This document shows positions 4,871 to 54,640 of a DNA stretch of 64,000 nucleotides, piece after piece. A program made the position numbers and the translations under genes. A model generated the notes under the pieces. It worked only from the letters and a program-made list of their open reading frames with translations, was not told where the DNA came from and did not search any database. Origin of the DNA: an uncultured Alphaproteobacteria bacterium (GTDB lineage Bacteria; Pseudomonadota; Alphaproteobacteria; HIMB59; GCA-002718135). The stretch covers positions 3,113 through 67,112 of the forward strand of contig CACDIK010000003.1 in the NCBI GenBank assembly GCA_902553005.1, in the 5' to 3' direction. Every line of letters begins with the position of its first letter. Position 1 is the stretch's first letter.

Positions 4871-4891
4871 AATTTTATTTATCCTCTTTTT

Positions 4892-5161: not shown

Positions 5162-5169
5162 CAGTTCTC

Positions 5170-36112: not shown

Positions 36113-37108
36113 TTAATTTTTTGCATTTACAACATTTGATAGAAATTGATTTGCACATTTATCCCAAGTAAATTGCATTGCAAATTTTCTACAATCTTTT
36201 CTATCAATCTTTAAGGCTTTATTAAGTGAGTTTTCAATATTATTATCAAGGCTATCAATTAATGAGTTTTTTAAAATATCTTTAGGACCTGTTACTGGGT
36301 AAGCAGCCACTGGTGTGCCAGAGGCTAAAGACTCTAAAATTACATTTCCAAATGTATCTGTTTTGGATGGGAATACCAATGCTTCAGCATTTGCATAATA
36401 GTTTGCTAGGTCTTGACCTTTTTTCATCCCAACGAAAGACACATATGGATATTTATTTTGTAATCGTTGCTTTTCTGGACCATCTCCAACAACAATTTTA
36501 TGCATCTTAGTTCTTATTTCTAAAAACGCTTCGATGTTTTTTTCTAATGAAACCCTACCAATGTAAACAATATACTTTTTCATTCCCTTTTTTCTTTTTA
36601 AAGGATTAAATAATTCAGTATTAACTCCCCTTGACCAAATTTTAAGATTTTGAAATTGATATTTAGTTAATTCGTTACGCATAGATATTGTTGGGACCAA
36701 TACATTACATGCATTTTTATGAAAATTTTTTAAAAAAGAGTACCCAATTATTTTTGGTATCATTATTCTTTGCTCTATATATTCTGGAAATCTCGTATGA
36801 AAAGAGGTTGTATATCTCAACTTATTATTCTCACAGAATTTTTTCCCCGCAATTCCAACTGGTCCTTCAGTGGCAATATGTATAACATCTGGATCATAAT
36901 CACCAAAAAATTTTTCTGTTATTTTTTTTGTATTAATTGCTATTTTTATTTCCTTATACCAAGGATAACTAAAATTAGTAAACATCATTGGGTGGAGTAC
37001 TTCAATTTGATACTTTTGTTTTAAAAATGGATTAATATGTTGGTATGTATTTACCACACCATTAACTTGGGGAAGCCAAGCATCGGTAATGATCGCTAAT
37101 TTTTTCAC
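36113..37108 (-). CDS. agt: GT4 glycosyltransferase, Agt paralog (copy 2)
   Basis: 331 aa, colinear with 30655-31656 at roughly 60% aa identity by eye (DAW.PQVNGVV, TEGPVG, SFHTRFP, PSKTDTFGNVILE). Confidence 0.7.
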   Translation of the reverse strand: MKKLAIITDAWLPQVNGVVNTYQHINPFLKQKYQIEVLHPMMFTNFSYPWYKEIKIAINTKKITEKFFGDYDPDVIHIATEGPVGIAGKKFCENNKLRYTTSFHTRFPEYIEQRIMIPKIIGYSFLKNFHKNACNVLVPTISMRNELTKYQFQNLKIWSRGVNTELFNPLKRKKGMKKYIVYIGRVSLEKNIEAFLEIRTKMHKIVVGDGPEKQRLQNKYPYVSFVGMKKGQDLANYYANAEALVFPSKTDTFGNVILESLASGTPVAAYPVTGPKDILKNSLIDSLDNNIENSLNKALKIDRKDCRKFAMQFTWDKCANQFLSNVVNAKN

Positions 37109-37911
37109 ACTAATACACTTTCTGCTAGTTTGTTATGTTTATGTTGAAAAATTTTTTCTCTTTCAATTGACCAGTCAATAAGGGATAATTGTCCCTCATT
37201 ATTTTCCACTAGCGCAGAACAACTCTCAACCCAATCACCATCATTGCAATATAAAACTCCATTTAATTTTTTTATAATGGGCTTATGAATATGGCCGCAC
37301 ACAACAACATCAGCATTTGCTCTTTTAGCACTATCAGATACGGCAAACTCAAAGTTAGAAATAAAATTCGTGGCTCTTTTTGTTTGATGTTTGAGAAATT
37401 GAGATAATGACCAATAAGATAGACCTAGTTTTCTTCTGACAAAATTTAGATAGTTATTCAACTTTAATATAAATTCGTATAGAGATGACCCAATACTTGC
37501 CAGCCATTTAGCGTTTAATATAACTGCATCAAATTCATCACCATGTAAAACAAGGGCATTTCTTCCATCAGCTAATTTGTGTGTAAACTTATTTTTTATT
37601 GATATATTCCCTAGTGAAAAACTTGTGTAACTTTTCACAAGTTCGTCATGATTACCTGGGATAAATATTACTTTTGTACCTTTTCTTGCTTTACGCAAAA
37701 TCTTCTGGATAATGTCATTATGAGTTTGATGCCAATAAATTTTTTTTTTCATTCTCCATGCATCAATAATATCGCCAACTAAAAATAAATATTTTGAATC
37801 TGTTGATCTCAAAAATTCAAGAAGCATTTCACTCTTGCTATTTTCTGTTCCAAGATGAAGATCAGATATCCATATAGTTCTATAATATGAAACTGATTGC
37901 TGATCTTTCAT
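37105..37911 (-). CDS. plcP: LpxH-like metallophosphoesterase, PlcP paralog (copy 2)
   Basis: 268 aa, about two-thirds identical by eye to 29853-30665, with the same metal motifs. It overlaps agt copy 2 by 4 nt. Confidence 0.7.
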   Translation of the reverse strand: MKDQQSVSYYRTIWISDLHLGTENSKSEMLLEFLRSTDSKYLFLVGDIIDAWRMKKKIYWHQTHNDIIQKILRKARKGTKVIFIPGNHDELVKSYTSFSLGNISIKNKFTHKLADGRNALVLHGDEFDAVILNAKWLASIGSSLYEFILKLNNYLNFVRRKLGLSYWSLSQFLKHQTKRATNFISNFEFAVSDSAKRANADVVVCGHIHKPIIKKLNGVLYCNDGDWVESCSALVENNEGQLSLIDWSIEREKIFQHKHNKLAESVLV

Positions 37912-38906: not shown

Positions 38907-39104
38907 TTAATCCCACTCACAATTATTGGTAATTAGCAGGAGGAAATAATACTGTGAGTGGTAAGAAACATTTAAATTTTATTGTTTACAAATAGATTAA
39001 TGGAATATTAAATTTTTATAAATTTAATTAATTTTTAACTTCATTAATTCTCAAATAAATTTTTTAGTTCTTTCAATTTATCAAAAATTGAATCTCTTAC
39101 TTCT
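38907..39104. repeat. Right copy of the roughly 198-bp direct repeat (includes the functional arsC 3' end)
   Basis: It aligns with 35896-36093. It contains a perfect 9-bp stem, CCACTCACA...TGTGAGTGG (38913-38961), extended by ATTAT/ATAAT pairing. Confidence 0.85.
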
Positions 39105-39463
39105 CTAAATTTATCTAATTGGTTTGAACTAAAATGATCTGATGCCGGATCATCAAATGGTATTGAAAATATCTGAGCTTTGGAATTTAAAACTGGACAT
39201 ACCTCTTCTTTACAAAGCGTAAAAACGGTATTTAATTCATCTCTAAATTTGTTGTCTAAACTTTCAAAATCTTTTGAATAATGTTTTGATATATCAATAT
39301 CGATTTCACCCATAACCTCGATAGCATTAGGATTAACTTCTTTGGGCAATGATCCTGCACTTTGAATAATGCAATTAGGATATAATTTTTTTGCAATTCC
39401 TTCAGCCATTTGACTTCTTGCTGAATTAGCAACACACATAAAAAGAATATTTTTATTTTTCAT
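39044..39463 (-). CDS. arsC: Arsenate reductase, LMW-PTPase type
   Basis: 139 aa with the P-loop CVANSARS (CX5R-S) near the N-terminus and downstream Cys residues (LCKEEVCP). Confidence 0.8.
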   Translation of the reverse strand: MKNKNILFMCVANSARSQMAEGIAKKLYPNCIIQSAGSLPKEVNPNAIEVMGEIDIDISKHYSKDFESLDNKFRDELNTVFTLCKEEVCPVLNSKAQIFSIPFDDPASDHFSSNQLDKFREVRDSIFDKLKELKNLFEN

Positions 39464-40479: not shown

Positions 40480-41532
40480 ATGGAAATTACAATTCTAATT
40501 TTTTTATTTGGTGGTCTTTTTTTAGGTTGGTCACTTGGTGCCAATGATGCAGCAAATGTTTTTGGAACTGCAGTTGGAACACGAATGGTTAGTTTCACAA
40601 GTGCAGCAATAATTTGTAGTGTCTTTGTTATTCTAGGTGCAATTATTAGCGGAGCAGGTACAACAGAAACCTTAGGAAAGTTAGGTGCTATTAATGCATT
40701 GCCTGGTGCTTTTGCAGCATGTGTGGCTGCAGGAATATCTGTTTATTTAATGACTAAAGTTGGCTTGCCTGTTTCAACAACGCAAGCAATTGTTGGAGCA
40801 ATTGTTGGTTGGAATTTATACACGGGATCTTCAACTAATCTTCAAGTTTTAATTACTATTTTAGGAACATGGATACTCTGCCCTATCATTGCAGGAGTTA
40901 TTGCTATGGGTTTATTTACTTTTACAAAAAGAGTTATACTCAATAGAAAATTACATATTCTCAGACTTGATGCCTATACAAGAACAGCTTTACTTTTAGC
41001 AGGTGCTTTTGGTGCTTATAGTTTAGGTGCAAACAATATTGCTAATGTAATGGGTGTCTTCGTACCTATATCACCGTTTACTGATGTTACTATTGGAAAT
41101 TTATTCGTCTTTTCCTCAAAAGAACAACTATTTCTGCTGGGTGGTTTAGCCATAGCTGTTGGTGTTTTTACCTACTCGAAAAGAGTTATGTTTACCGTGG
41201 GTAATGATCTCTTAAAAATGACACCAGTGGCAGCATTTATTGTTGTTATATCGCATTCTATTGTTTTATTTTTATTTGCATCCCAGGGCATAAGTGCTTT
41301 TTTACAATCTATAAATCTTCCTTCTATACCTTTGGTACCAGTATCAAGTTCCCAAGCTGTTGTTGGTGGCGTAATTGGAATTGGTCTTTTAAAAGGAGGA
41401 AAAGAGGTTCAATGGTCAATTGCAGGAAGAATTTCTTTGGGTTGGATGACGCTACCTATAATTGCAGCTTTAATTTCTTTAATTGTTTTATTTATTCTAG
41501 AAAATATTTTTAATTTAACGGTCTCTTTTTAA
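40480..41532 (+). CDS. pit: Inorganic phosphate transporter, PiT family
   Basis: 350 aa with the duplicated PiT signature GANDAANVFGTAVG and, in the second half, GANNIANVMG. Confidence 0.9.
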   Translation: MEITILIFLFGGLFLGWSLGANDAANVFGTAVGTRMVSFTSAAIICSVFVILGAIISGAGTTETLGKLGAINALPGAFAACVAAGISVYLMTKVGLPVSTTQAIVGAIVGWNLYTGSSTNLQVLITILGTWILCPIIAGVIAMGLFTFTKRVILNRKLHILRLDAYTRTALLLAGAFGAYSLGANNIANVMGVFVPISPFTDVTIGNLFVFSSKEQLFLLGGLAIAVGVFTYSKRVMFTVGNDLLKMTPVAAFIVVISHSIVLFLFASQGISAFLQSINLPSIPLVPVSSSQAVVGGVIGIGLLKGGKEVQWSIAGRISLGWMTLPIIAALISLIVLFILENIFNLTVSF

Positions 41533-42053
41533 TTAACTGCTCGATAAGAAAAAATAAAATCTTTCTGTATTTTAGATTCAATAGCTCCTTTTCTTCTTGA
41601 TCGTACAAGATCAATAGCTTCTTGTTTTTCATAATTAAATTCAACAAGTAAAATAGCAGCTATAGTACCAGCTCTTCCTTTTCCTCCACGACAATGTAAG
41701 ACTATATTTTTACCATCTATCAATTCGTTCTTTAATAAAACTTTTGTTGTTTCCCATTTATATTTAAAATCTTTATCTGGTGCTCCCATGTCATAAATGG
41801 GTAAATGGTACCAATGTAATTTATGTTCATAAATATTTTTGACAAACAAAGTTTTATCACACAATTTTTCAAATTCGCTATCTTCAACAAAAGAAGTAAT
41901 AGAACTACAATTATTATTTTTAAATATTTCTAATTCGTTTGCTAAAATTGTTTCTTCAAATAAACCATTAGAGTTAAGACCTGGGAAAGAAGTTAATATA
42001 ATTTTTCCTGCAAATGACTTAGAGTCAATAAAATCATAATTGCTAAATTGCAT
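41529..42053 (-). CDS. Cys-based phosphatase (dual-specificity / PTP-like)
   Basis: 174 aa with the HCX5R loop VLHCRGGKGRAGT and no signal peptide. Its start abuts the stop of the HD gene. Confidence 0.7.
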   Translation of the reverse strand: MQFSNYDFIDSKSFAGKIILTSFPGLNSNGLFEETILANELEIFKNNNCSSITSFVEDSEFEKLCDKTLFVKNIYEHKLHWYHLPIYDMGAPDKDFKYKWETTKVLLKNELIDGKNIVLHCRGGKGRAGTIAAILLVEFNYEKQEAIDLVRSRRKGAIESKIQKDFIFSYRAVN

Positions 42054-42629
42054 TTACGCTTGTTTAGCTAAAAAAGACTCTCTTGCTTCTTCTAAATAGG
42101 GACGGAAATGTTCAACATCGGGAGTTTTTTTATCTAGAACTTTTGCTAAATCATCAAATCTCCTAAGCTCTATTGCTTCATCCATAAAAGGTTTACTTAT
42201 AAATGCATCTGCTTCTTCTTTTGTGAAAGGACCGCCTTGAACTTTTAATGAAAGTTTCGATGCTTCTGATAGGCTATCATAATAACCCTCTTCAACACTT
42301 GATAAATATCTTTTTGAGTCAACATGTGCTCTAATTGGTAAAATAACATCCTCACCAAAATATTTTTTTAAAAAATCAGCACCTAAATTTTCATGATGAC
42401 CATCTTTGCCTTCATGAATGGGATCGCCGTCCTCATAGATAAGGTGGCCAACATCATGCAGTAATGCTGCAGCAATTGTTGGTCCTGGTAATTTATTTTT
42501 TTCAGCAAGTTCAGCGCATTGGAGTGCGTGCTCAAGCTGTGTCACATCCTCATTACCATATTGAATATCAGCACCTTTTGTTTTCAAAAGATCTAAGAGA
42601 TAATCTACGATATTTTCTTCCATTCTCAT
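42054..42629 (-). CDS. phnZ: HD-domain protein of the PhnZ/MIOX-like di-iron oxygenase type (phosphonate C-P oxidative cleavage candidate)
   Basis: 191 aa with the ligand pattern H34 (QLEHALQCA), H58-D59 (LLHDVGH), H78/H79, H102 (RAHVDSKRYL) and D159/D160. This matches my recollection of the PhnZ metal ligands. It is divergent from phnW. Confidence 0.6.
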   Translation of the reverse strand: MRMEENIVDYLLDLLKTKGADIQYGNEDVTQLEHALQCAELAEKNKLPGPTIAAALLHDVGHLIYEDGDPIHEGKDGHHENLGADFLKKYFGEDVILPIRAHVDSKRYLSSVEEGYYDSLSEASKLSLKVQGGPFTKEEADAFISKPFMDEAIELRRFDDLAKVLDKKTPDVEHFRPYLEEARESFLAKQA

Positions 42630-42717
42630 TTATAATTAACTTATTAGAAAATAAATTCAATTCCAACTTTAATAAGATTGATCAAATTTATAATAATATT
42701 TATTAAGTAAATATTTA

Positions 42718-43815
42718 ATGGATAAAAAATTATTAACCCCTGGGCCTCTCACAACATCGATGTCAACAAAAGAGGCAATGCTTCATGATTGGGGTTCGAG
42801 AGATACAAAATTTATTGATCTCAATGCATCAATTAGAGATTCCCTTGTTAAATTAATAGACGGTGAAGATAAATATCAATGTGTTCCAATGCAGGGAAGT
42901 GGAACTTTTGCTGTAGAGTCGATGGTGAGCTCTCTTACTCAAAAAGATTCTAAAATTCTGATTCTGATCAATGGTGCTTACGGACAAAGAATGAAAAAAA
43001 TGTGCACATATTTAGGGAGAGATTTTATTGAATATGAAGTTGCTGAACATGAAGTACATGACATCAATAAAATTGAAGAGTTAATTGATAGCAACAACTT
43101 AACACACGTCTTTGCTGTATATTGTGAAACAACATCGGGTATTTTAAATCCTATTGAAGACATTGCAAAATTGGTTGAAGGGAAAAATTTATCGTTATTC
43201 ATCGATGCAATGAGTGCCTTTGGTGCATTACCCTTAAGTTCTAAAACAATTACTTTTGATGCTGTAGCCGCTTCATCAAACAAATGCTTAGAAGGTGTGC
43301 CAGGTGTTGGTTTCATTCTTGTAAAAAATGAAGTTATTCAAAATGCAAAAGGCAATAGTCACTCACTAAGTCTAGACTTGTATGATCAATGGCAAGCAAT
43401 GGAAAAAAATAAACAATGGCGATTTACACCTCCTACACACGTATTGGCTGCATTCAATCAAGCGATTGAAGAACATAAAGAACAAGGCGGTGTAGAAGGA
43501 AGAGGTAAAAGATATAAAAAAAATTGTGAAATTATTTGTAATGGAATGAAAGAGTTGGGATTTGAGCAACTACTTCCTGATAATTTACAAGCACCAATTA
43601 TTATTACTTTTAAACAACCTAATGATCCTAAATTTAACTTTGAGCAATTTTATAATGCTCTTAGTGAAAAAGATTTTTTAATTTATCCAGGAAAACTAAC
43701 AGTGGCAGAAACTTTTAGAATTGGGTGTATTGGTAATTTAAATGAACAAGACATGATGGATACAATAAAAGCTGTAAAAGAAGTCGTTACTGAGTTGGGA
43801 CTAACATTAAACTAA
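42718..43815 (+). CDS. phnW: 2-aminoethylphosphonate--pyruvate transaminase
   Basis: 365 aa, class-V aminotransferase, with the N-terminal LLTPGPLTTS...ML.DWGSRD typical of PhnW and an SSNKCLEG PLP-Lys region. Confidence 0.85.
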   Translation: MDKKLLTPGPLTTSMSTKEAMLHDWGSRDTKFIDLNASIRDSLVKLIDGEDKYQCVPMQGSGTFAVESMVSSLTQKDSKILILINGAYGQRMKKMCTYLGRDFIEYEVAEHEVHDINKIEELIDSNNLTHVFAVYCETTSGILNPIEDIAKLVEGKNLSLFIDAMSAFGALPLSSKTITFDAVAASSNKCLEGVPGVGFILVKNEVIQNAKGNSHSLSLDLYDQWQAMEKNKQWRFTPPTHVLAAFNQAIEEHKEQGGVEGRGKRYKKNCEIICNGMKELGFEQLLPDNLQAPIIITFKQPNDPKFNFEQFYNALSEKDFLIYPGKLTVAETFRIGCIGNLNEQDMMDTIKAVKEVVTELGLTLN

Positions 43816-43822
43816 CAAAACA

Positions 43823-44455
43823 ATGACAAAAGAAATTGAAATACCTTTAGTTAAAGCAACAAATGAAAATCTTAAAGGATATGGGTATTTAATCGATAGT
43901 TTTGAAAATAGTGATATTGAAATTGTTACTTGGCCAAAACAAGGATGGCGTGACATAGAAGAGGGAACTGGTAATGAAGGTGGAACTACCGAAGGTTCTT
44001 TTGATACCTGGTGGCAAGGTGACGTGCTTTATGGGCAAAATAATGCTGTTCAACATAAAAGCGATTATGAAGTAGATGGAAAATATATACTGGGTTATTC
44101 CAATAATCCTGATCAAGAATTACAAAAAGATAAATATTCAGATCCAACAAAAATTTTTTTATGGCATGCAAATTATCATCCTGATGGAGGTCAGCTTTTC
44201 TTTCCTGAAGAAAATAAACCATTTATTTGTCCTTTAGCCTTACCGACAGACGACATTGAACCAGAACATTTTAAAGCATTTTATTGTGACGGATCAAAAG
44301 GTTTGTATATTCATCCAAATATTTGGCATGAAGGGGTGTTTCCAGTTACAGAAAAACAATCTTTTCAAGGAAAACAAGGTAAAGTACATGCAAGAGTTAG
44401 TATTGATTTAAAAGAAGAGTTTGACAAATATATCTTTTTTAAAACTAGAATTTAA
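43823..44455 (+). CDS. Ureidoglycolate-lyase-fold (AllA-like, cupin-type) protein of unknown role
   Basis: 210 aa with blocks resembling AllA: N-terminal NLKGYGYLI, NYHPDGGQLFFP (compare ERHP.G.Q.F.P) and GLYIHPNIWHEG (compare G.NYH...WH). It has an extra insertion of about 45 aa. It starts 7 nt after the phnW stop. Confidence 0.55.
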   Translation: MTKEIEIPLVKATNENLKGYGYLIDSFENSDIEIVTWPKQGWRDIEEGTGNEGGTTEGSFDTWWQGDVLYGQNNAVQHKSDYEVDGKYILGYSNNPDQELQKDKYSDPTKIFLWHANYHPDGGQLFFPEENKPFICPLALPTDDIEPEHFKAFYCDGSKGLYIHPNIWHEGVFPVTEKQSFQGKQGKVHARVSIDLKEEFDKYIFFKTRI

Positions 44456-44466
44456 TTGGTAATAGA

Positions 44467-45276
44467 TTATTTTATACCCGAAGTTGCAAAACTCTCTACA
44501 AACTGTCTTTGAAAAATAATAAATGCAATTATTAGTGGTGCGGTTACCATTAATGTCCCTGCGCTTATAGTAGCCCACTCGATACCTGATTCCTCCATAG
44601 AAAAGATAGCTAAACCAACATTTAAAATTCTAGTTTCCTCTGAGTTAGTTATTATTAAAGGCCACAAATAATTATTCCAATGATAAGATATTGATACAAG
44701 TCCATAAGCTAAAAAAGTAGGTATAGATAATGGTATGTAAACATGCCATAAAATTCGTAATGCTCCAGCACCATCAATCCTCGCAGAATCATCTAGCTCT
44801 TTTGGAACAGTTTTGAAAGCTTGTCTTAAAACAAAAATTCCAAAAGCAGATGCAATGTAGGGAAGGCTAATTGCAGGAATGGTATCTATCAAATTTAAGA
44901 ATTTAATTGTTTTATAATTTTCGATAAGAATGATTTCTGGATTAATCATTAGTTGAATTAAAACTAATCCAAAAAGTATGTTCTTAAAAGGAAACTCATA
45001 TCTTGCAAAAGCAAATGCAGTCAGAGAACATAAGATAAACTGGCATGAAGTGGTCATTGTAACGTATATAAATGTGTTGAACATATATCTTGCAAAAGGA
45101 GCTTGTGACCAAGCATTTTCAAAATTGTATAAGGTCAGAGGGGCAAACAAATCAAATTTAACTTGATATTCTATTGGGTGTATCGAAGCCCAGATTGCAT
45201 ATAAGAGCGGTAGTAACCATAAAAATCCAAGTAACCAAGCACCAATAATATTAATATTTTTATAGAATGAATACAT
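44467..45276 (-). CDS. ABC transporter permease (MalG/UgpE-type)
   Basis: 269 aa with the EAA loop DDSARIDGAGALRILWHVYIP. Confidence 0.85.
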   Translation of the reverse strand: MYSFYKNINIIGAWLLGFLWLLPLLYAIWASIHPIEYQVKFDLFAPLTLYNFENAWSQAPFARYMFNTFIYVTMTTSCQFILCSLTAFAFARYEFPFKNILFGLVLIQLMINPEIILIENYKTIKFLNLIDTIPAISLPYIASAFGIFVLRQAFKTVPKELDDSARIDGAGALRILWHVYIPLSIPTFLAYGLVSISYHWNNYLWPLIITNSEETRILNVGLAIFSMEESGIEWATISAGTLMVTAPLIIAFIIFQRQFVESFATSGIK

Positions 45277-45278
45277 TT

Positions 45279-46157
45279 TTATTGGTAATGGACCTTTCTA
45301 TCCAATAAAAAAATTTGACCAATTCCTATTATTGACAATAATATAATTAGTAAAACCGATAATGTTATTGCGTATGCTGTATCCCAAAATTCAAAACCAT
45401 TCTCATAAATATAATAGAGTAATAAAGCGCTGTTGTAATTTGGACCTCCACCAGTCATAGTGAATAAATGTTCTATTCGTGTAAAGGCAGTAATTACTGC
45501 ATTGACTGAAACAAATAATAAGGTTGGTGTTATCATTGGTAGTGTAATTTTGTAAAACATTTGCCAACTATTAGCCCCTTCAATAATTGCTGCCTCTTTC
45601 ATTTCCCTAGGTATTCCTTGAAGAGCAGCTAGAAAAAAAATCATGTAAAAACCAGACTCTTTCCAAATACTTACAGCAATAATACCCCATAAAACTTGAT
45701 CAGGGTTTCCTAAAATATTTGTATTTTGGAAACCAAATAAAGATCCAACTTGATCAATTAATCCAAAACCAGGAAGAAAAAAAAAGAGCCATATATTACC
45801 AACAGCTATTAAGGGTAAAACTACAGGTAAAAAATATGCAAAACGAAGCAATGGTCTACCGGGTAACTTGCTGTTTACCCATTGCGCCATAATTATTGCA
45901 ATAATTATTGAAGATGGGATTGTAGAAATTGCATAAACAATATTGTTAGACATAACCTTCCAAAAAATGGGGTCTGAAAACATATGTTCATAATTTTCAA
46001 TACCTTTAAACTTACTTGGTTTTCTCCCTTTAGGAGTAGAAAAAAAACTCATATAAATTGTTTTAACAACAGGTATGTGAACAAAAGTTAATAATAATAT
46101 GAATCCAGGCGATAAAAGTAAAATTACTGGTATATGTTTTTTAATTTTAGTTATCAT
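45279..46157 (-). CDS. ABC transporter permease (MalF/UgpA-type)
   Basis: 292 aa with the EAA loop KEAAIIEGANSWQMFYKITLP. Confidence 0.85.
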   Translation of the reverse strand: MITKIKKHIPVILLLSPGFILLLTFVHIPVVKTIYMSFFSTPKGRKPSKFKGIENYEHMFSDPIFWKVMSNNIVYAISTIPSSIIIAIIMAQWVNSKLPGRPLLRFAYFLPVVLPLIAVGNIWLFFFLPGFGLIDQVGSLFGFQNTNILGNPDQVLWGIIAVSIWKESGFYMIFFLAALQGIPREMKEAAIIEGANSWQMFYKITLPMITPTLLFVSVNAVITAFTRIEHLFTMTGGGPNYNSALLLYYIYENGFEFWDTAYAITLSVLLIILLSIIGIGQIFLLDRKVHYQ

Positions 46158-46190
46158 AAAAAAAACGGCACTATTATTAACTAGTGCCGT
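46158..46190 (-). terminator. Intercistronic hairpin plus T-run after the binding-protein gene
   Basis: The minus strand reads ACGGCACTA-(8 nt)-TAGTGCCGT followed by 8 T, running straight into the permease ATG. Confidence 0.65.
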
Positions 46191-46204
46191 TTGATATTTT
46201 TTCT

Positions 46205-47479
46205 TTATCTGTAATCTTTTAGTATTTTATCAATTTCGGCATGCGCCTCTAAAAGAGCAGTTTTAGGATCTTTTTCCCCAGCAACTGCTGCTTCTAACGC
46301 TCTATTAAAAATTGAAACAGTTTTAGGTTGCTCGTAGGTCGAAAATTCTGGACCTGCATACTCCAACTGATCTCTTGCAACAGCTGGATATGGAAATTCT
46401 TTTAAAAATTCTTTCATTTCATCAGACTCCCAAGTCTCAGCTCTAGGTGCAACATAACCAGTGGCTTTTGTCCAGGCAACAGACTGTTTAGGTTCTGTTA
46501 TCCATTTTACAAAGTCTTTTGTTGCTTGCTGTTCCTCTTCTGTAGTGTCAATTGATAGATAAAAATTTCCTCCTCCAACTGGTGCTCCAAATTGTTTAAT
46601 ACCAGGAATGAAAGCTACACCCCAATCAAACGGAGCATTATTTCTGACGTTTGTCAGATTTCCAGTAGTAGTCCACATCATTGCAGTTTGACCCTCAAAA
46701 AATGCCTGTGGAGTAGATCCCCATTCAAGTATACCTGGTCTCATCACCCCTTCAGTAGTACTAAGAGCTACAAGTTTTTCTAATGCTTCAATGGCTTCTG
46801 GTGAATTAATATATGTTTCAGTGCCATTATCGTTCATAATTTTTCCACCATTGCCATAAACAATTGCACTAAATAACCAGTATGGAAAACCAGCAGATGG
46901 AATTCTTATTCCGTATTGACTTACATTTCCATCAGAATCTTTGATTGTTAATTTTTTTGCAACTTCTAGCTGTTCATCCCAAGTCTTAGGTGGATTTTCA
47001 GGATCTAATCCCGCAGCTCTAAAAGCATCCTTATTGTAATAGAGTACTGGTGTTGATCTTTGAAATGGAATCCCATAAGTTTTACCATCAACTTGACCAT
47101 TAGCCATAAAAGCAGGATAAAAACCACCTATCCAATTATCAATTTCGTCTTGAGTTAATATATCGTCCCAAGCCATTACACATTCTTCGTCTATATATTT
47201 AAAAATTGTAACAGCAATCATAACTGATGTTGCAGGAGCTGTTCCAGATTTACATGCTGTTAGAAATTTAGTATCTGTATCTGTATAACTTCCTGTGAAA
47301 ACAGCTTTCACATTTACATCTGGATTTAATTTTGTGTAATCTTCTGCAAATTTCTCAATTGCCTGAGCAGCTCCACCACCTACAGCGACTGGAAAATAAA
47401 ATTCTAGGTCAATAGCCCTTACACTTAATGATGTTATTACCACGGTTAAAGAGATAATAAGTAATTTAATTATATTCAT
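46205..47479 (-). CDS. Periplasmic solute-binding protein, family 1 (UgpB-like), substrate unknown
   Basis: 424 aa with a signal peptide and the family-1 SBP architecture. It heads two MalFG-type permeases. Confidence 0.8.
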   Translation of the reverse strand: MNIIKLLIISLTVVITSLSVRAIDLEFYFPVAVGGGAAQAIEKFAEDYTKLNPDVNVKAVFTGSYTDTDTKFLTACKSGTAPATSVMIAVTIFKYIDEECVMAWDDILTQDEIDNWIGGFYPAFMANGQVDGKTYGIPFQRSTPVLYYNKDAFRAAGLDPENPPKTWDEQLEVAKKLTIKDSDGNVSQYGIRIPSAGFPYWLFSAIVYGNGGKIMNDNGTETYINSPEAIEALEKLVALSTTEGVMRPGILEWGSTPQAFFEGQTAMMWTTTGNLTNVRNNAPFDWGVAFIPGIKQFGAPVGGGNFYLSIDTTEEEQQATKDFVKWITEPKQSVAWTKATGYVAPRAETWESDEMKEFLKEFPYPAVARDQLEYAGPEFSTYEQPKTVSIFNRALEAAVAGEKDPKTALLEAHAEIDKILKDYR

Positions 47480-47620: not shown

Positions 47621-48415
47621 ATGATGAAAATTATTCACCTCTCTGACCCCCATATTCATACAAATGAATTATTTGGCATAAACTCCGTAGAAAGATTCAA
47701 ATGTGCTTTAGAACACATTGTTTTAAATCACCGTGATGCAGATATGTTTGCTATAACTGGTGATATAACGGACATTGGAGATGAAGATTCTTACAATCTG
47801 TTTAAAAAAATAATAAAAGAATTTAATCTACCCCTAAACCTTGAACCAAAACTAATACCTGGTAATCATGACAATCGTGAAAATTTTAAAAAAACTTTAA
47901 ATCATGTGCCAACTGATAGTAATGGATTTATCCAATACTACGATGACTATAAGAATAATAGATTTATTTTTATAGATACTCTAGAGCACGGAACACACAT
48001 TGGTCATTATACGTTAAAAAGACAAGAATGGTTGATTGATCTTTTAAATAACACAGATGATAATAAAGAAATTTATATATTTATGCACCATAATCCATTG
48101 GCACTGGTTAGAGATGAAAGCGATGGTATTGGATTAAAACATAAAAAAGAATTTAAAGAAATATTGATTAGTAAAAAAAATATTAAACATATTTTTTTTG
48201 GTCATCAGCATATTACTAGTTCCGGATCATATCTTGGTATAAGTTTTTCCTCGCCAAGGAGCACATGGTCACCTCTAATACCAAATTTTTCATCTGAATA
48301 TAGGCTTGGTTTAGCTAATACTGATCCAAATTACAATGTAGCAATTTTAAATAAAAATGGAATAGTAATTCATACTGAAGATTTTTTAAAAACAGAAGTT
48401 AATTGGTTTAAATAA
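47621..48415 (+). CDS. Calcineurin-like metallophosphodiesterase (GpdQ/CpdA-like)
   Basis: 264 aa with the motifs HLSDPH, GDITD, GNHD, MHH and GHQH in GpdQ order. It is divergent from the UgpB-like operon. Confidence 0.75.
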   Translation: MMKIIHLSDPHIHTNELFGINSVERFKCALEHIVLNHRDADMFAITGDITDIGDEDSYNLFKKIIKEFNLPLNLEPKLIPGNHDNRENFKKTLNHVPTDSNGFIQYYDDYKNNRFIFIDTLEHGTHIGHYTLKRQEWLIDLLNNTDDNKEIYIFMHHNPLALVRDESDGIGLKHKKEFKEILISKKNIKHIFFGHQHITSSGSYLGISFSSPRSTWSPLIPNFSSEYRLGLANTDPNYNVAILNKNGIVIHTEDFLKTEVNWFK

Positions 48416-48418
48416 AAA

Positions 48419-49525
48419 TTATTTTTTTTCGATTACAAATATTTCATTGTTAAAATAAAGACCTTTATTTTTAGCAACAATGTTTTGGACTACTTTTTCG
48501 TAATTTTTTGTTTTTTCTACCTTCATTACTTTTTCGTCATCCATTTGATTGACATATATGGAGGCATTCCAAGCAGAAAAAACTAATGATGTCGCTATAC
48601 CTCCACTGATTTCTGTTGGTAGAGCTCTCAATTTACATTTAATAATTCTTTTTTCTCCAAAAGATAAACTTCTTAATAAATCTTTATCTAAATTTTTCTT
48701 AAGATAAGAAATGATACTATTTCCAAGAGAAGGAAAAGGGTCCTCTTTTGGCCAAATTTTACGAATTATTTCATTAGCAGGATCTTTTCCTGAAGCATGA
48801 ATAGTTAATAATTTCCCTTTTGATTTTAACGCTCTGATCATTGGTTCGATGACATATTTTGATTTCTTTTCTGCTGTGATTCTTGAACGATACGGCTGTG
48901 AAGCAATAATAAGATCAAATTTATTATCTGATTTTTTTTTGGTAGGTATTAATTCATTTACATTAAATTCTTGATCTTCGCGGTAGATAACCATGACTGA
49001 AGGCTCTTTATAAGTATGGTTACCTGACTTTTTATTAATTTCTATATTCCATTTTTTTTCTAAAAATTCATTTTGTTTTCTTAATTGTTGGGCAAATTCA
49101 AGAGAGGTATCTCCTTTTAATTTAATAATATTCCAATTAATTTTTTTCTGTTTAACTTCATTTTTTGATTTTAGGTTTGCAGCTTCAGCGTAGTGTAGAT
49201 TTGAAATGACAAAAACCGTATTCTTATGTTCAACAAACCTGTCGGGTAATTTTTCTAAACCTAATCTTACATCTTCTATGCTTATTTCTTTTGTGCAAAC
49301 TAATAGAGGTACGTTAGGCTTAGCCTCGTGGCACTGACGCATAACATTCATAAGTAAGGAACCATCACCCATACCAGCATCAAATATTTTTATACCAGGT
49401 TTTTGAGGTTTAATTTTATTTACGTGAGGACGTATCGCATCAGCAATTTGATTTTTTTCATTTGTTGTTGTGACAAATAATAAGTATTTTTGTCTGTTAT
49501 CATAAAACCTGAAATTTTTTTTCAT
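48419..49525 (-). CDS. Uncharacterised protein with a class-I SAM-methyltransferase-like glycine loop
   Basis: 368 aa with IFDAGMGDGS (motif I-like), an acidic residue after beta-2 (CTKEIS), and DLIIASQPY. It is the last gene of the SBP/MetE-like/ADH operon, with a 2-nt gap. Confidence 0.4.
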   Translation of the reverse strand: MKKNFRFYDNRQKYLLFVTTTNEKNQIADAIRPHVNKIKPQKPGIKIFDAGMGDGSLLMNVMRQCHEAKPNVPLLVCTKEISIEDVRLGLEKLPDRFVEHKNTVFVISNLHYAEAANLKSKNEVKQKKINWNIIKLKGDTSLEFAQQLRKQNEFLEKKWNIEINKKSGNHTYKEPSVMVIYREDQEFNVNELIPTKKKSDNKFDLIIASQPYRSRITAEKKSKYVIEPMIRALKSKGKLLTIHASGKDPANEIIRKIWPKEDPFPSLGNSIISYLKKNLDKDLLRSLSFGEKRIIKCKLRALPTEISGGIATSLVFSAWNASIYVNQMDDEKVMKVEKTKNYEKVVQNIVAKNKGLYFNNEIFVIEKK

Positions 49526-49527
49526 TA

Positions 49528-50640
49528 CTAATAAAGTCCCATTGATTTAGCAGAAGAGATGAAGGCTTCTTTATTGCCAATAAAGTTTTTACCTCGTTCC
49601 CCTAAAAACGCATCATCTACTATATTATTCCATTCTTGAACAGGAACTTTTATTTCATTTAAGTTTAGAGGAACCTCTAAAGAACGCATAAATTCACTCA
49701 GATGATTTGCGGCATTCTCTAGGCTATCGTTAAAAATTAATTTTAGTCTCTCCTCAGCTACACTATCAATTCCAACCATACTTTTAGTAATCATGGGTAA
49801 AGTAAATGAACAAGCAATACCATGCTGAATACCGTAATTGAGTGTCACAGGGTAAGATAGATTGTGCGCAATAGCAGTTTTCGTATTGGAAAACGCTAAG
49901 CCAGCATGAACGCATGCCAGTGCAATGTTTGAGCGTAATTCAACATTTCTTAAATCTTTAGTGAGAAGTGGTAAAGTTTCTAATACTAATTTTGATGCTT
50001 GTATTGCATGAGAAGCAGAAACTGGGTTTGCATTAATATTCCAAATACTTTCCATTGAATGGGAGAGAGTATCTAAACCTGTTGAAATGGTCAAACCTAA
50101 AGGCTTATCAACCATAATAGATGGGTCAATAATTGTTTTTTCTGCATAAAGAGATTTGTGCGCCAAAGATAATTTATTATTTTTTTCTTTATCCCATATT
50201 GTGGCCCAACACGTAAGCTCACTTGATGTTCCTGAAGTTGTAGGTACTGCAATAATCTTGATTGGATTTTCGACTCTTGGATTTTTCTTATTGCGAACGA
50301 AATCTGTTAGATATTCTTGTTTATCTTTAAATGCAGCAATTGCTTTAGCTGTGTCTGTAACAGAGCCACCACCTATAGCTAAAATATAATCTACCGATTC
50401 ATTGATTGAAGAAAATTTATTTTGTAGCTCTAAAATATCCTTATAATCTGGATTAGGCTGAACATCAGTCATAATGGATAAAGGTGGATTTGAAGAAGAT
50501 TTTAATTCATTGCTATATTTTTTAAAAATTTCTTCTGGATGAGTAATTATGATGTAGTTCTTATTTTTAAGAGCATCATGTACTTCTTTAAATCTATTTT
50601 CTCCAAAGATAATTTCAACAGGGTTAAAATAATTCCACAT
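49528..50640 (-). CDS. Iron-containing (group III) alcohol dehydrogenase; phosphonoacetaldehyde/2-hydroxyethylphosphonate oxidoreductase candidate
   Basis: 370 aa with the GGGSVTDTAKA NAD(P) motif and His-rich metal ligands (LDTLSHSMES, AIAHNLSYP). The family assignment is firm; the substrate is inference from context. Confidence 0.75.
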   Translation of the reverse strand: MWNYFNPVEIIFGENRFKEVHDALKNKNYIIITHPEEIFKKYSNELKSSSNPPLSIMTDVQPNPDYKDILELQNKFSSINESVDYILAIGGGSVTDTAKAIAAFKDKQEYLTDFVRNKKNPRVENPIKIIAVPTTSGTSSELTCWATIWDKEKNNKLSLAHKSLYAEKTIIDPSIMVDKPLGLTISTGLDTLSHSMESIWNINANPVSASHAIQASKLVLETLPLLTKDLRNVELRSNIALACVHAGLAFSNTKTAIAHNLSYPVTLNYGIQHGIACSFTLPMITKSMVGIDSVAEERLKLIFNDSLENAANHLSEFMRSLEVPLNLNEIKVPVQEWNNIVDDAFLGERGKNFIGNKEAFISSAKSMGLY

Positions 50641-50644
50641 TACA

Positions 50645-51724
50645 TTAAATTGATTTTGCCGCTTTAGTTAAAATTGTCATTTTCTCAATTGCTTGTTCTC
50701 GCGTAAAGAAACCTAAACCACAATCTGGTGCAGCTATTAAACGGTGTTCATCAATATGCTCTAAAGAATCTTTCATACGAACTCTAACTTCTTCTACTGT
50801 CTCCATTCTGCTTTTAGCAATGTCAATAAATCCAAAAATAACTTTTGTTTTTGTAAATTTTTCTAAAAGATTTAAGTCATTATGTCTGTGGGAGTCTTCT
50901 AAGGATACTTCGTCAATTGTAGAGTCATCTACTAAAGTAGCAATTCTATCATAAGCATCTAATTCTGCTTTCTTGTATCCATGAGAATCTAAGGAATTTG
51001 GATAACCACAACAGATATGACAAACTCGTTGAACTTCTTTTGGAATACCATGCATCATTCTTTCCAAGTTTTCCATACCATAAGCATTGGCCTCATCGGG
51101 TTTTCTTGCAAAAACTGGTTCATCAATTTGTATGTATTGACAACCAGCATCAGCTAGAGCTTTTACCTCTTTGTTTAGAGCCAAAGCTAAATCAAAACCA
51201 AGTTTTTTCATGTCATCATAGTAATTATTAGCAATAGAATCTGTAATTGTCATTGGTCCTGGGAGAGTTATTTTAACTGGATTTTTTGTAAATTGCTGAG
51301 CACTTTTCCAATCTATATGCATACGAATTTCTTTACTTGAAATTGGAGCTACTATCGTTGGAAGATCAGCTTCAAAGGCTCCTTGCCGTACAGATTTATG
51401 AGTTACCTCTTTAAAACTTACACCGTTTAAAAAACGACATTGATATAAGACATAACTTTCACGTCTTACTTCTCCATCAGTTGGAACATCAATTCCCGCA
51501 TTTACCTGATCAATAATAACCTCTTTAATTGCTTCTAAAAATAATTTTTCTGCTTCTTCACCTGCTGACTCTAATGCCTTTTCATACGCACCTGGAGACC
51601 AATTAGATAAAAGTCCTTTTGAAGCTTTTCTCTCTTCTTCTGATTTTGTCCCTAAAAACCAATCTTGAATCGGCGTCTGTTTTGGTTTTGGATATGCACC
51701 TATGGTAGTAGTTGTAAGAGGCAT
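50645..51724 (-). CDS. MetE C-terminal-domain-like (Meth_synt_2) zinc-dependent alkyl/methyl-transferase
   Basis: 359 aa, starting TTTIGAYPKP like short MetE-like proteins. Its Zn/thiol-activation pattern is H-x-C (CHICCGY), E (SLEDSH) and D-C-G (APDCGLGF). Confidence 0.65.
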   Translation of the reverse strand: MPLTTTTIGAYPKPKQTPIQDWFLGTKSEEERKASKGLLSNWSPGAYEKALESAGEEAEKLFLEAIKEVIIDQVNAGIDVPTDGEVRRESYVLYQCRFLNGVSFKEVTHKSVRQGAFEADLPTIVAPISSKEIRMHIDWKSAQQFTKNPVKITLPGPMTITDSIANNYYDDMKKLGFDLALALNKEVKALADAGCQYIQIDEPVFARKPDEANAYGMENLERMMHGIPKEVQRVCHICCGYPNSLDSHGYKKAELDAYDRIATLVDDSTIDEVSLEDSHRHNDLNLLEKFTKTKVIFGFIDIAKSRMETVEEVRVRMKDSLEHIDEHRLIAAPDCGLGFFTREQAIEKMTILTKAAKSI

Positions 51725-51806: not shown

Positions 51807-53060
51807 CTATAAAAGATCCTCTATTTCTTCCATCATCTCTTCTTGAAGATCAGCCATATTATCTGCACTACCTGTAGCAATTTCTTCAGTGTAATCATAG
51901 ATTACCTGAGTTATTGCTAGACCGTTTTCACCAGGATATGCAAACCAATCAGCCAATAAAGGTAATTGATTTACAGCAGTTAGCTTGTTTGGATTTTTAG
52001 TATAAAAATCACCTAACAAATCATTGGCTGCTTTATTTGGTGGAACATATCCAGTAGTTTCAGCAACTAAAGCTGCACCTATACCAGAAGTGATAAACTT
52101 TAAGAAAGTCCATGCAGCATCTACTCTTGCTGGATCATCAGATGTAGAAACCAACATCGCAGCATTTCCACCCGCTGGAAGTCTTGCTGGAGTTCCTCCA
52201 TTTACACCTGGCATTCCTGGAAATGGTGCTGTTTTAAGTTCAAAATCTGCTTTGGCTGCGTTTACTGAACCTAAGCTTGATGTTGACCAGAAAAACATAC
52301 CAATAGTGCCTGCATTAAATGCAGCTTGACCGTCAGCAATTGAATAGTTTGGCATATTACAACCACTCATTATGTCATGCATTTGTTGTAAAGTTGCTAG
52401 ACCAGCATCTCCACCCATATTAACAGCACCATCTTTTACCATTGGAACATTTTGGGTATGCATTAATGCTTGGTGAAACCAGTTACCTGTAATATTCCAA
52501 CCAAAATATAAAGTTCCTTTTCCAGCTGCTTCTAATTTATTACAAGCTGCGATAACTTCGTCCCAGTTAGTTGGGATGTTATCTATACCTGCTTCAGCTA
52601 ATAGATCCATGTTATAGTATCCAACTGGTGTTGATACAGAAAATGGTAACCCATATACGTCACCACCAAAGGTAGATAGACTTAACATAGCAGAGTGATA
52701 ACCATCTTTTTCAAAGTCAGCTTCTCCTGCAATAAAAGGCTCTAATGATTTTGCAATCCCTTTATCAACAAGTGGTGCTTGTCTGTTAAGACCTTGCATC
52801 GTTACATCTGGTAAATTACCTGAAGTAGACTCTCTGAAGATTGTTGCGGTTGCATCTTCATAGTTTTCATAAGTTGCCCTAAATTTAACTTGAATATCTG
52901 GATGTGCTTTTTCAAACTCCGGCATAATAGCTTGAAAGGTAACATCAAATAATCCAGAATAAGGATAAGCTACTTCTATTTCTATAGACTTAACTGAATT
53001 AACAGAACCATAAAAACCAAAAGCTAATACGGCTGCCAATCCTGTAATTAATTTTTTCAT
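51807..53060 (-). CDS. Periplasmic solute-binding protein, family 1 (UgpB-like); candidate organophosphonate binding protein
   Basis: 417 aa with a signal peptide and family-1 SBP architecture. It lies between phnA-phnY and the MetE-like operon, opposite an ABC ATPase and two permeases. Confidence 0.75.
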   Translation of the reverse strand: MKKLITGLAAVLAFGFYGSVNSVKSIEIEVAYPYSGLFDVTFQAIMPEFEKAHPDIQVKFRATYENYEDATATIFRESTSGNLPDVTMQGLNRQAPLVDKGIAKSLEPFIAGEADFEKDGYHSAMLSLSTFGGDVYGLPFSVSTPVGYYNMDLLAEAGIDNIPTNWDEVIAACNKLEAAGKGTLYFGWNITGNWFHQALMHTQNVPMVKDGAVNMGGDAGLATLQQMHDIMSGCNMPNYSIADGQAAFNAGTIGMFFWSTSSLGSVNAAKADFELKTAPFPGMPGVNGGTPARLPAGGNAAMLVSTSDDPARVDAAWTFLKFITSGIGAALVAETTGYVPPNKAANDLLGDFYTKNPNKLTAVNQLPLLADWFAYPGENGLAITQVIYDYTEEIATGSADNMADLQEEMMEEIEDLL

Positions 53061-53197: not shown

Positions 53198-54640
53198 TTA
53201 CCAAGGTAGCGAAAAGGTTTTTACATTAGTAAAACTTTTCATCGCTTCAATAACACCCTCTTTGTAACCAAGACCTGAATCTTTAATTCCTCCAAAAGGA
53301 GACATTTCAATTCTGTAGCCTGGAACCTCCCAAATATTTACTGTACCAACATTTAAACCTTGAATATATTTTTTTGCTCGCATGAAATTATTTGTACATA
53401 CACCAGATGATAATCCGAATGCGGTTGAATTAGATATTTTCATTACAGCTACATCGTCATTAGGCACACGAATGATTGGAATAACCGGACCAAAAGTTTC
53501 TTCTAAAACTAATTCACTTTTAGGATCAACATTGTCTACTACTATTGGAGGCAACAACGCACCCTTTCTTCCAGGATGATATAAAATTTTTGCACCATCT
53601 TCTTGCGCCATAGAAACTCTTTTATCAAAAAGTTCCGCAGCTTCAGCATTAACAACAGTACCTAAGTCTGTTTCCATATTCATAGGATCACCAAATTTAA
53701 TTTTCTTAGCACGCTCAAGAGCCATTTCAACAAATTGATCTGCAATGGATTCTTGAACCAGTATTCTTTTAACAGCTGTACAACGTTGACCAGAGTTTTT
53801 CGTTGCTCCAGTAACAGCTAGCTCAACTGCTTTTTTAAGATCATCACCATCTAAGTCATTTAAAACAATTAGTGGATCATTACCACCAAGCTCTAGAACT
53901 GTTCTTTTGTATCCAGCTTGTTCAGCAATTAATTTTCCTACACCTACACTGCCTGTAAAAGTAATTAGATCAATGTTTGGATTTTTGATCATTTCTGATC
54001 CGATATCTTGAGGCCATCCAGTTACAACTGAAAACATTTCTGGTGGCAGACCTGCTTCATATAAAACATCAGCGAGTACCATTGCTGTTAAAGGTGTTAA
54101 TTCTGTCTGCTTACATACTGTACAATTATTAGTAGCAATTGAAGGCGCAATTTTATGCGCTACCATATTCAAAGGGTGATTAAATGGAGTGATTGCTGAG
54201 ATTGCCGTTAAAGGTTCTCTTATGGTAAATATTTTTCTCGCTTTTCCATGCGGAGTTAAATCACAAGAAAATATTTCTCCATCATCAAGAATACAAAGTT
54301 GAGCCGTCAAAGAAAATACATCAAAAGCTCTTCCTACTTCGTATAGAGAATCTTGTTTTGAGATACCAAGTTCTAAAGTAATAATATCAGAAATTTCTTC
54401 TTTTCTTTTAACAAGTACTTCTGCAGCAGTTTGAAGAATTTTTTGTCTCTCATATCTTGTAAGTTTAGATTGGTAATTTGCAGCAATATCTAAAGCCTTT
54501 CTTGCATGCTCTGCAGTACCGGCAGGGACCGTGCCGATTACTTCACCTGTAAAAGGGTACTCAACATTTATTGTTTTATCTGAAGTAACTTTTTCTCCAG
54601 CTATACGCATTGCTTCATTAATCATTTTTTTGTGCATCAT
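53198..54640 (-). CDS. phnY: Aldehyde dehydrogenase, PhnY-type phosphonoacetaldehyde dehydrogenase candidate
   Basis: 480 aa with ALDH motifs (ELGGNDP, catalytic Cys in GQRCTAV). It has a 4-nt overlap with phnA, the known PhnW/PhnY/PhnA arrangement. Confidence 0.75.

Follow-up and report, generated by a model that had tools for sequence, protein, structure and literature searches.

A stand-alone PhnZ/TmpB-type oxygenase and an AllA-fold cupin coupled to phnW in a SAR11-type phosphate-starvation island

How does a PhnZ-type HD-domain oxygenase serve a genome region that encodes no 2-oxoglutarate (2OG)-dependent hydroxylase to prepare its substrate, and what does a protein with the fold of ureidoglycolate lyase (AllA) do beside it? 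The question is raised by 4 adjacent genes in a 64,000-nucleotide stretch of alphaproteobacterial contig CACDIK010000003.1 (the window, meaning the whole stretch; gene coordinates are window positions). These are a PTP-like Cys-phosphatase gene (41529-42053, minus strand, 174 aa); the gene of a PhnZ/TmpB-family HD-domain protein of the mixed-valent diiron oxygenase type (42054-42629, minus strand, 191 aa); phnW, encoding 2-aminoethylphosphonate (AEP):pyruvate transaminase (42718-43815, plus strand, 365 aa); and the gene of an AllA-fold cupin, hereafter AllA-like (43823-44455, plus strand, 210 aa). Coordinates and translations confirmed the 4 open reading frames (ORFs), the spacings, and the residues quoted in a preliminary description of this DNA, with 0 nt between HD and PTP genes, an AT-rich divergent intergenic region of 88 bp between HD and phnW (42630-42717), and 7 nt between phnW and the AllA-like gene. 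The window is a SAR11-type (Pelagibacterales) phosphate-starvation island. We consider it probable that it serves aminophosphonate scavenging of a known type, through a PhnWYA unit plus a stand-alone PhnZ/TmpB-type oxygenase, with the cupin as an accessory to phnW and not as the partner of the HD protein.

The 4 genes are 2 separable units, PTP-HD and phnW-AllA. We compared 50 SAR11-type loci, 47 non-SAR11 loci, and 80 marine-metagenome loci picked through PhnW; except for this last, reciprocal sample, loci were drawn through the genes under test, and the SAR11 loci are often closely kin, so that counts overstate independent events. The HD gene was identified in 38 of the 50 SAR11-type loci. 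Among these 38, the PTP gene lay directly downstream of HD in 32 and elsewhere in the locus in 2, with none in the locus in 4; phnW was divergent and adjacent in 29, parted from HD by transporter, oxidase, or kinase genes in 2 (L010 and L039; L numbers denote individual loci), and missing from the locus in 7. The HD gene stood divergently upstream of phnW in 29 of 52 PhnW-sampled loci, an arrangement that is frequent and not obligatory, and a promoter and Pho-box scan of the 88-bp region gave nothing above background. SAR11 variants L093-L096 carry, beside Pit genes and without phnW, only a divergent EamA/HD-PTP arrangement and a PhnS2-type AEP ABC transporter (PhnS2, 513 bits vs a cut-off of 393); these HD-only modules have no AllA-like gene either.

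In the EamA/HD-PTP variants, the PTP gene follows either HD or the ABC permease gene; it always shares their orientation and converges on PHO4. Because of this shared orientation, we read the PTP gene as the last gene of an HD/uptake unit; its assignment to the Pit/PhoU_div unit was ruled out by the same arrangement. The HCX5R Cys-phosphatase described at 0 nt after HD was recovered as such, with the P-loop HCRGGKGR (C-x5-R) and a PF22784 match of 46.3 bits against a cut-off of 27. Its PIYDMGAPD segment aligns with the Asp loop of SsoPTP (PIPDGGVP), SsoPTP and PRL phosphatases are its nearest structures, and its family is narrow and of SAR11 (247 clusters, all about 174 aa). The protein is thus a predicted Cys-based phosphatase of PTP/DSP fold, presumably co-transcribed with HD or AEP-transporter genes. 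A choline/ethanolamine-kinase-like gene of APH fold recurs beside HD (L006-L008, L010) or near phnW (L004), often together with a TIGR03329 "aminophosphonate oxidoreductase" gene and OpuAC- or PhnS2-type transporters.

The other unit has its own partners. The preliminary description overlooked phnY, phnA, and a PhpC-type 2-hydroxyethylphosphonate (HEP) dehydrogenase gene, which lie about 5-12 kb downstream of the 4 genes. They belong to a minus-strand operon of phnA, phnY, a substrate-binding protein gene, a MetE-like gene, the PhpC-type iron-dependent alcohol dehydrogenase (Fe-ADH) gene, and the gene of a conserved 368-aa protein. Within about 13 kb, phnW (NF010006, 511.5 bits vs 296; TIGR03301, 464.6 vs 360.8), the phosphonoacetaldehyde dehydrogenase gene phnY (53198-54640, minus strand; TIGR03250, 794 vs 635.65), and the phosphonoacetate hydrolase gene phnA, the C-P-cleaving step of PhnWYA (54637-55878, minus strand; TIGR02335, 468.6 vs 407.55), each score above the equivalog cut-off. 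In compact relatives (L001, L031, L033, L035-L038), phnY and phnA are contiguous with the module, and the uninterrupted gene order in such relatives, L001 among them, is PhoU_div-PHO4, PTP-HD, phnW-AllA-metallophosphoesterase (MPE), unk-phnY-phnA, and EamA. Since phnW heads the standard PhnWYA hydrolytic route, it is not wired to HD for want of other partners. By family membership, PhnW would convert AEP and pyruvate to phosphonoacetaldehyde, PhnY would oxidize this to phosphonoacetate, and PhnA would release acetate and phosphate from it. Cluster-associated PhpC homologues are HEP dehydrogenases that feed phosphonoacetaldehyde (PMC13576164), and the PhpC-type Fe-ADH-family enzyme of the window (49528-50640, minus strand; TIGR03405, 362.4 bits vs a cut-off of 423.7) is, judged by family, probably one of them, so that HEP would enter the same phosphonoacetaldehyde pool.

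A PhnZ homologue beside such a route is not new. In a survey of 19,425 complete genomes, Zangelmi et al. 2021 identified phnZ homologues in 24 of 75 phnWAY clusters (32%), there without PhnY*, and in 15 of 1,186 phnWX clusters, and never with pbfA (PMC8154272). They showed that PhnW transaminates (R)-1-hydroxy-2-aminoethylphosphonate (R-HAEP) only at a slow rate and that PhnX is unable to process what is formed, and they read these PhnZ homologues as a separate branch for environmental R-HAEP (PMC8154272). A stand-alone "PhnHD" beside phosphonatase operons in Achromobacter was interpreted in the same way (PMC11203657), and 45% of the phnZ sequences from marine sources belong to Pelagibacterales (Lockwood et al. 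2022, PMC9381506). We class the locus as a SAR11 form of the known phnWAY + phnZ clusters, and its gene arrangement is not new, because phnZ without phnY* beside phnWAY has already been described and interpreted. The earlier view of the 4 genes as a module outside any described pathway is therefore given up: PhnY and PhnA partners are encoded in the island, clusters of phnWAY and phnZ without phnY* have been tabulated (PMC8154272), and the genes fall into 2 separable units. Like the clusters of that survey, the island gathers phnW, phnY, phnA, and a PhnZ-type HD gene without PhnY* and without PbfA. Unlike them, it places HD in its own unit with a PTP-fold phosphatase, to which relatives add an AEP ABC transporter and EamA; its phnW is always followed by the AllA-fold cupin; and it has interleaved cassettes (Ugp-like ABC, MPE, PhpC, MetE-like, and S-adenosylmethionine [SAM]-methyltransferase-like) and lies inside a SAR11 Pho island.

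Every sequence marker places the HD protein among the diiron oxygenases of PhnZ/TmpB type. Its whole length can be aligned with TmpB (6npa, E 2.6e-33), its best match in the PDB, and with PhnZ (4mlm, E 1.7e-29), at roughly 35-45% identity. The 6 diiron ligands that the preliminary description recognized by their spacing are retained in this alignment, with H34, H58, D59, H79, H102, and D159 at the positions of TmpB 6npa and PhnZ 4mlm. Also present are the YxxE substrate-gating loop (Y24-G-N-E27) and the "fifth histidine" H62 (H58-D-V-G-H62); the H…HD…H…H…D ligand motif is defined in PMC8177086, and the loop and the additional histidine are hallmarks of the oxygenase clade (PMC8177086; PMC11203657). 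Against TIGR03276, the HD protein scored 202.3 bits and did not reach the cut-off of 214.6, a weak failure because bona fide TmpB proteins also fall just under it (197.9 and 193.5). Neither the TmpB model NF049941 (157.5) nor the model of PhnZ1, hydroxymethylphosphonate dioxygenase (NF052439, 153.5), reached its cut-off of 300, and because these scores are about half of the cut-offs, we place the HD protein in the family as a separate subclade.

The PhnY*/PhnZ and TmpA/TmpB pairs have been reviewed as 2-enzyme systems of oxidative C-P cleavage (PMC8177086). The HD protein shares the diiron ligands, the loop, and the fifth His with PhnZ and TmpB, and differs from both pairs in having no adjacent 2OG hydroxylase and in scoring under the equivalog cut-offs. 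The statement that the window holds no PhyH/TauD-like ORF was borne out by Pfam and NCBIfam scans: no match was identified in any window ORF of at least 110 aa, with ORFs at 50.6-61.7 kb scanned by NCBIfam only, all of them clearly of other identity, and with a few ORFs of at most 139 aa left unscanned. Reports of oxidative C-P cleavage by the 2 enzyme pairs reportedly go back to McSorley 2012 and Rajakovich 2019. A TauD/TmpA-like gene was found near HD in 1 of 38 SAR11-type HD loci and in none of the 80 PhnW-sampled loci. The exception, L009, is the only locus with a TauD-family gene among about 130 related SAR11-type loci, and this gene could be a lineage-specific hydroxylase candidate. It lies at 4821-5795 (plus strand) of that locus, about 4 kb from the divergent HD/phnW-AllA module, and has no NCBIfam equivalog; a chemotaxis-receptor gene, uncommon in SAR11, is located on the same contig.

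We suggest that the HD protein has no need of an in-house 2OG hydroxylase because its substrate would arrive already 1-hydroxylated from seawater. The imported compound is most likely R-HAEP, which the enzyme would cleave oxidatively to glycine and phosphate; PhnW and the downstream enzymes handle R-HAEP poorly, and the PTP gene is the last gene of the HD/AEP-transporter unit. Of the 2 options offered in the preliminary description, an HD enzyme that takes an already hydroxylated phosphonate is thus the best-supported one, and it matches the published interpretation of phnWAY + phnZ clusters. The HD protein might instead act on another hydroxyphosphonate that abounds in the dissolved organic matter of the sea; hydroxymethylphosphonate and 1-hydroxy-2-(trimethylammonio)ethylphosphonate (OH-TMAEP) are examples. 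Its similar scores for the TmpB and PhnZ1 models, its closest PDB match being TmpB and not PhnZ, and the varied substrates of PhnZ clades, of which only the original one is AEP-specific (PMC8316502; PMC6581173), would fit such a substrate. However, both equivalog scores reach only about half of the cut-off, genes for PhnS2-type AEP transporters, as well as phnW, are found linked to HD, the amine-sensing YxxE loop is kept, and the published reading of such clusters is HAEP (PMC8154272), so that we regard a substrate other than HAEP as unlikely.

The new part of the locus is the AllA-like gene. In SAR11-type loci, phnW was immediately upstream of it in 35 of 35 cases, and the 7-nt coupling between the 2 genes is invariant in SAR11. 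The PhnW-based sample (n = 80) gave the same picture from the other side, with the AllA-like gene after phnW in 66 of 66 loci with enough downstream sequence. The AllA-like gene is kept where HD is missing (L004, L040-L042), including a phnA-phnY-phnW-AllA operon (L042) and a phnW-AllA pair together with a true PhnX (L004). Spacing and gene order suggest that it is translationally coupled to phnW, and we regard its product as a candidate for a new enzyme with an accessory role in aminophosphonate catabolism. Genes of allantoin or purine catabolism were identified neither in the window scans nor in the SAR11 loci; the question raised at the outset, whether this gene goes with phn or with purine genes, is settled for the SAR11 lineage in favor of phn, with phnW linkage in 66 of 66 loci and no allantoin genes.

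Outside SAR11, the AllA-like gene was also found with aminophosphonate genes. In 14 of 47 non-SAR11 loci, it lies directly after the HD gene in a tmpA-tmpB-AllA operon divergent from a LysR gene, in Leisingera, Ruegeria, Amylibacter, Thalassobius, Hoeflea, and others; in the operons of Rhodobacteraceae (roseobacters), where the AllA-like gene is the third, TmpA (600 bits vs 400) and TmpB (362 and 352 vs 300) are bona fide. The gene is linked to phnW in Arenicellales, and a betaproteobacterial copy, again linked to phnW, has the gene of an HpnW-type FAD oxidase next downstream. In a Rhodospirillaceae metagenome-assembled genome (L077), a gene for a DMGDH-like N-demethylase, a fused FAD-oxidase/GcvT protein (2432-5688, plus strand, of that locus), overlaps the AllA-like start, and its neighbors are phnW, bona fide PbfA, an AEP-type LysR regulator, an Fe-ADH, and an aldehyde dehydrogenase; the whole has the look of a cluster for N-methyl-aminophosphonates. 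The AllA-like proteins from the different contexts sit in different clades of a neighbor-joining tree.

The AllA-like protein has an AllA-type cupin fold according to its AlphaFold2 model (pLDDT 89.7). The top 5 Foldseek matches of this model are AllA structures (probability 1.00, TM score on target 0.63-0.70, 14-16% identity); RmlC-like cupins rank next. PF04115 matches above its gathering score (39.9 bits) over residues 119-182 only, and the NCBIfam ureidoglycolate-lyase equivalogs give at most 33 bits against cut-offs of 160-315. The conserved His blocks noted earlier, NYHPDGGQ (117-124) and HPNIWHEG (164-171), are present, and the insertion of about 45 aa noted with them proved to be a trait of the whole subfamily, the protein being about 45-50 aa longer than canonical AllA. 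Conserved in the subfamily are R43, H119-x-D121-x-x-Q124, W168-H169, Q185-G186-x-x-H189, and E199, and the H-P-x motif has Asp where canonical AllA has Leu. At the sequence level, its H-x-D…Q…H pattern matches the 2 cupin metal motifs and points to a putative metal site. Like AllA (PF04115; 1xsq, 1yqc, 2bdr), the protein shows a cupin-type fold with the H-P-x-G-x-Q…W-H core; unlike AllA, it is longer, only 14-16% identical, and has Asp for Leu in H-P-x, an extra conserved Gly-rich N-terminal segment, R43, H189, E199, and an aminophosphonate instead of an allantoin context. The subfamily, of about 200-230 aa, comprises 389 representative clusters at E ≤1e-10 and more than 4,000 clusters at 90% identity, and occurs in at least 553 reference species. 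One member from high-GC DNA (P0359, 418 aa) carries the AllA-like domain fused to a C-terminal glyoxalase/VOC-like domain, and another (P0287) is extended N-terminally by a long stretch of low complexity, a hint at eukaryotic (algal?) members.

The other option of the preliminary description made the AllA-fold protein a new type of partner, acting as a hydroxylase or lyase; as a hydroxylase of a type other than PhyH/TauD, it would replace PhnY* and turn AEP into 1-hydroxy-AEP for HD. Its H119-x-D121 with a distal H169 or H189 does resemble a facial triad, where canonical AllA has H-P-L; the surroundings of HD genes in SAR11 encode no 2OG hydroxylase; the AllA-like and HD genes occur together in many loci; and in roseobacters the AllA-like gene directly follows that of TmpB. 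Yet the cupin is tied to phnW (66/66) and not to HD (29/52), it is kept in operons without HD (L042, and L004 with PhnX), HD-only modules lack it, and the roseobacter operons already hold a dedicated hydroxylase, TmpA, beside it. The H119-x-D121…H169/H189 motif is read from sequence, the protein matches no 2OG-oxygenase family in Pfam or NCBIfam, and its structural neighbors are AllA lyases and RmlC-like epimerases, not oxygenases. On this evidence we regard a cupin hydroxylase serving HD as very unlikely. An ordinary ureide/nitrogen lyase, either a true ureidoglycolate lyase or a close variant that hitch-hikes after phnW without a phosphonate role, is to our mind very unlikely as well. The PF04115 match and the AllA fold would suit it, as would the many copies in non-phosphonate contexts and, in Sneathiella, the allantoate-amidohydrolase-family gene directly upstream; against this stand scores far under the ureidoglycolate-lyase cut-offs, the low identity to AllA structures, the invariant 7-nt coupling to phnW in SAR11, the absence of allantoin genes from the window, and an aminophosphonate linkage that is independent in at least 4 lineages (phnW; tmpAB; phnW + PbfA; phnW + HpnW oxidase).

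We also considered the AllA-like protein as an enzyme that processes C-P or C-N bonds of 1-hydroxylated or N-substituted aminoethylphosphonates by ureidoglycolate-lyase-like chemistry at the carbinol carbon, a proposal that we rate as unlikely. Possible reactions would be elimination or rearrangement of an α-hydroxyphosphonate, or conversion of 1-hydroxy-phosphonoacetaldehyde to glycolaldehyde and phosphate; in an extreme form, a phosphonate-to-phosphate rearrangement whose product the neighboring phosphatases hydrolyze is possible. If true, phosphonate mineralization in the sea would gain a new enzyme reaction, carried by SAR11 and roseobacters. Two further roles were examined and rejected. 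A substitute for PbfA, that is a lyase from HAEP to phosphonoacetaldehyde, is disfavored, since L077 has the AllA-like gene alongside bona fide PbfA, and other loci have it alongside HD or TmpB. A route from PhnW through PhpC and a HEPD-like cupin to a PhnZ1-like enzyme, by way of hydroxymethylphosphonate, fails because PhpC is absent from compact phnW-AllA loci and from tmpAB operons, and cluster PhpC is a HEP dehydrogenase (PMC13576164).

Under the favored explanation, the cupin as an accessory to phnW, its chemistry can be sketched at low certainty only. It may be a metal-dependent enzyme that turns another natural compound related to AEP into a substrate for these aminophosphonate routes, or it may clear a reactive by-product of aldehyde or carbinol type, for instance 1-hydroxy-phosphonoacetaldehyde, the dead-end product of PhnW acting on HAEP. 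Both roles would accord with AllA-type chemistry, in which an adduct is broken down at a carbinol carbon. Weak hints of aldehyde or adduct chemistry are the glyoxalase-like fusion in P0359, the genes of DMGDH-like proteins and BetA (choline dehydrogenase) in L077 and L087, and a GFA-family (formaldehyde-activating) gene beside a Paraburkholderia copy.

Several points weigh against the explanation that we favor. The remaining non-SAR11 copies of the AllA-like gene, roughly half to two thirds by criterion, stand in unrelated and heterogeneous contexts, among them a copy annotated "hypothetical protein" on Paraburkholderia megaplasmids, and a neighbor census of these "orphan" genes showed no consistent pathway. 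Because so many non-SAR11 copies lie in unrelated contexts, the family is not phosphonate-specific. In Sneathiella, the only ureide-type context found for the subfamily, the AllA-like gene directly follows an M20 gene of the allantoate-amidohydrolase/carbamoylase family (L075, 8602-9837; L076, 7583-8827; both plus strand). No one reaction accounts for the linkage to both phnW and tmpAB. On the side of the oxygenase, the scores lie below the TmpB and PhnZ1 equivalog cut-offs and narrowly below that of TIGR03276, related PhnZ clades act on hydroxymethylphosphonate or OH-TMAEP (PMC8316502), and the hydroxylase search spans the window and the sampled loci, so that the genome may carry a gene of PhnY*/TmpA type at another place. 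Finally, with many SAR11 loci being near-relatives, the linkage counts are not counts of independent events.

We found no report of AllA-like proteins linked to aminophosphonates in the literature searched, the protein is not among the described Pbf enzymes, and the link appears undescribed so far. Like PbfA, PbfB/C/D, PbfF, and PbfG (Parma group, 2021-2026), the AllA-like gene is a recurrent accessory of phnW-type clusters across phyla, found by its context, and like these factors, it likely broadens or safeguards the substrate range of the core pathway. Unlike the Pbf enzymes, which depend on pyridoxal phosphate (PLP), FAD, or NAD, it encodes a structurally unrelated cupin, occurs in oxidative tmpAB operons as well, and, unlike a PbfA substitute, coexists with PbfA (L077). 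The precedent is encouraging, since the context-found accessory genes PbfA, PbfC/D, PbfF, and PbfG each proved to encode a new enzyme activity. The cupin is abundant, with thousands of marine sequences in addition to the reference species counted above, it is tightly operonic with phnW and tmpAB, and no function has been described for it in the literature searched; it is a well-supported and apparently unreported accessory of aminophosphonate catabolism.

In the marine phosphorus cycle, aminophosphonate mineralization by SAR11 weighs heavily, and phnZ and phnW are used as pathway markers in metagenomic surveys. Because the SAR11 PhnZ-type gene probably works without PhnY* and lies in a unit apart from phnW, phnZ counts are not to be read as "AEP oxidation"; in SAR11, they more likely reflect the use of pre-hydroxylated phosphonates.

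The setting of the module is that of phosphate starvation. In the low-GC window (about 30%), profile scans identified pstSCAB-phoU-phoB, phoR, ppx, ppk, and a PhoU_div-PHO4 (Pit) transporter pair around the module, together with lipid-remodeling genes. The GORG single-cell genome AG-899-B06 encodes an identical AllA-like protein (100%) and neighboring genes at 96-100% identity. A pair of PlcP-like metallophosphoesterase and GT4 glycosyltransferase genes, of lipid-remodeling type, is present in 2 copies (29853-31656, plus strand; 36113-37911, minus strand), with aquaporin-like, ppx, histidine-phosphatase, and ppk genes between them. A SET-domain gene (29267-29794, minus strand) adjoins phoR, and a gene resembling low-molecular-weight PTP/arsenate reductase (39044-39463, minus strand) lies upstream of the Pit unit; both are kept at the island border in related loci.

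Downstream of the AllA-like gene, most SAR11 loci have the MPE gene directly next; in the window, this SpdA-like gene (47621-48415, plus strand; PF00149, 61.5 bits; NF050112, 161.7 bits, below the cut-off) is displaced by a UgpBAE-like ABC cassette (44467-47479, minus strand). The cassette is inserted between the 2 genes only in window-type genomes (L011, L012, L021), and the MPE occurs as 2 alleles, at about 99% and about 67% identity. The conserved 368-aa protein (48419-49525, minus strand), which is SAM-methyltransferase-like, had no NCBIfam or PDB match and only a weak match to Methyltransf_31; its gene is always the last of the SAR11 phnA-phnY operon, compact loci included. We considered it as a cryptic hydroxylase (2OG or cupin oxygenase) and set this aside, as both the IFDAGMGDGS motif and the β/α pattern of the protein point to a SAM methyltransferase; a single-sequence model (pLDDT 36) was unusable. 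The MetE-like gene, of the cobalamin-independent methionine-synthase family and thus for a protein of Zn-dependent methyltransferase type (50645-51724, minus strand; 198 bits, below cut-offs), an extra substrate-binding protein gene located between phnY and the MetE-like gene (51807-53060, minus strand), and the PhpC-type ADH gene are inserted between phnY and the gene of the 368-aa protein in a subset of SAR11 loci.

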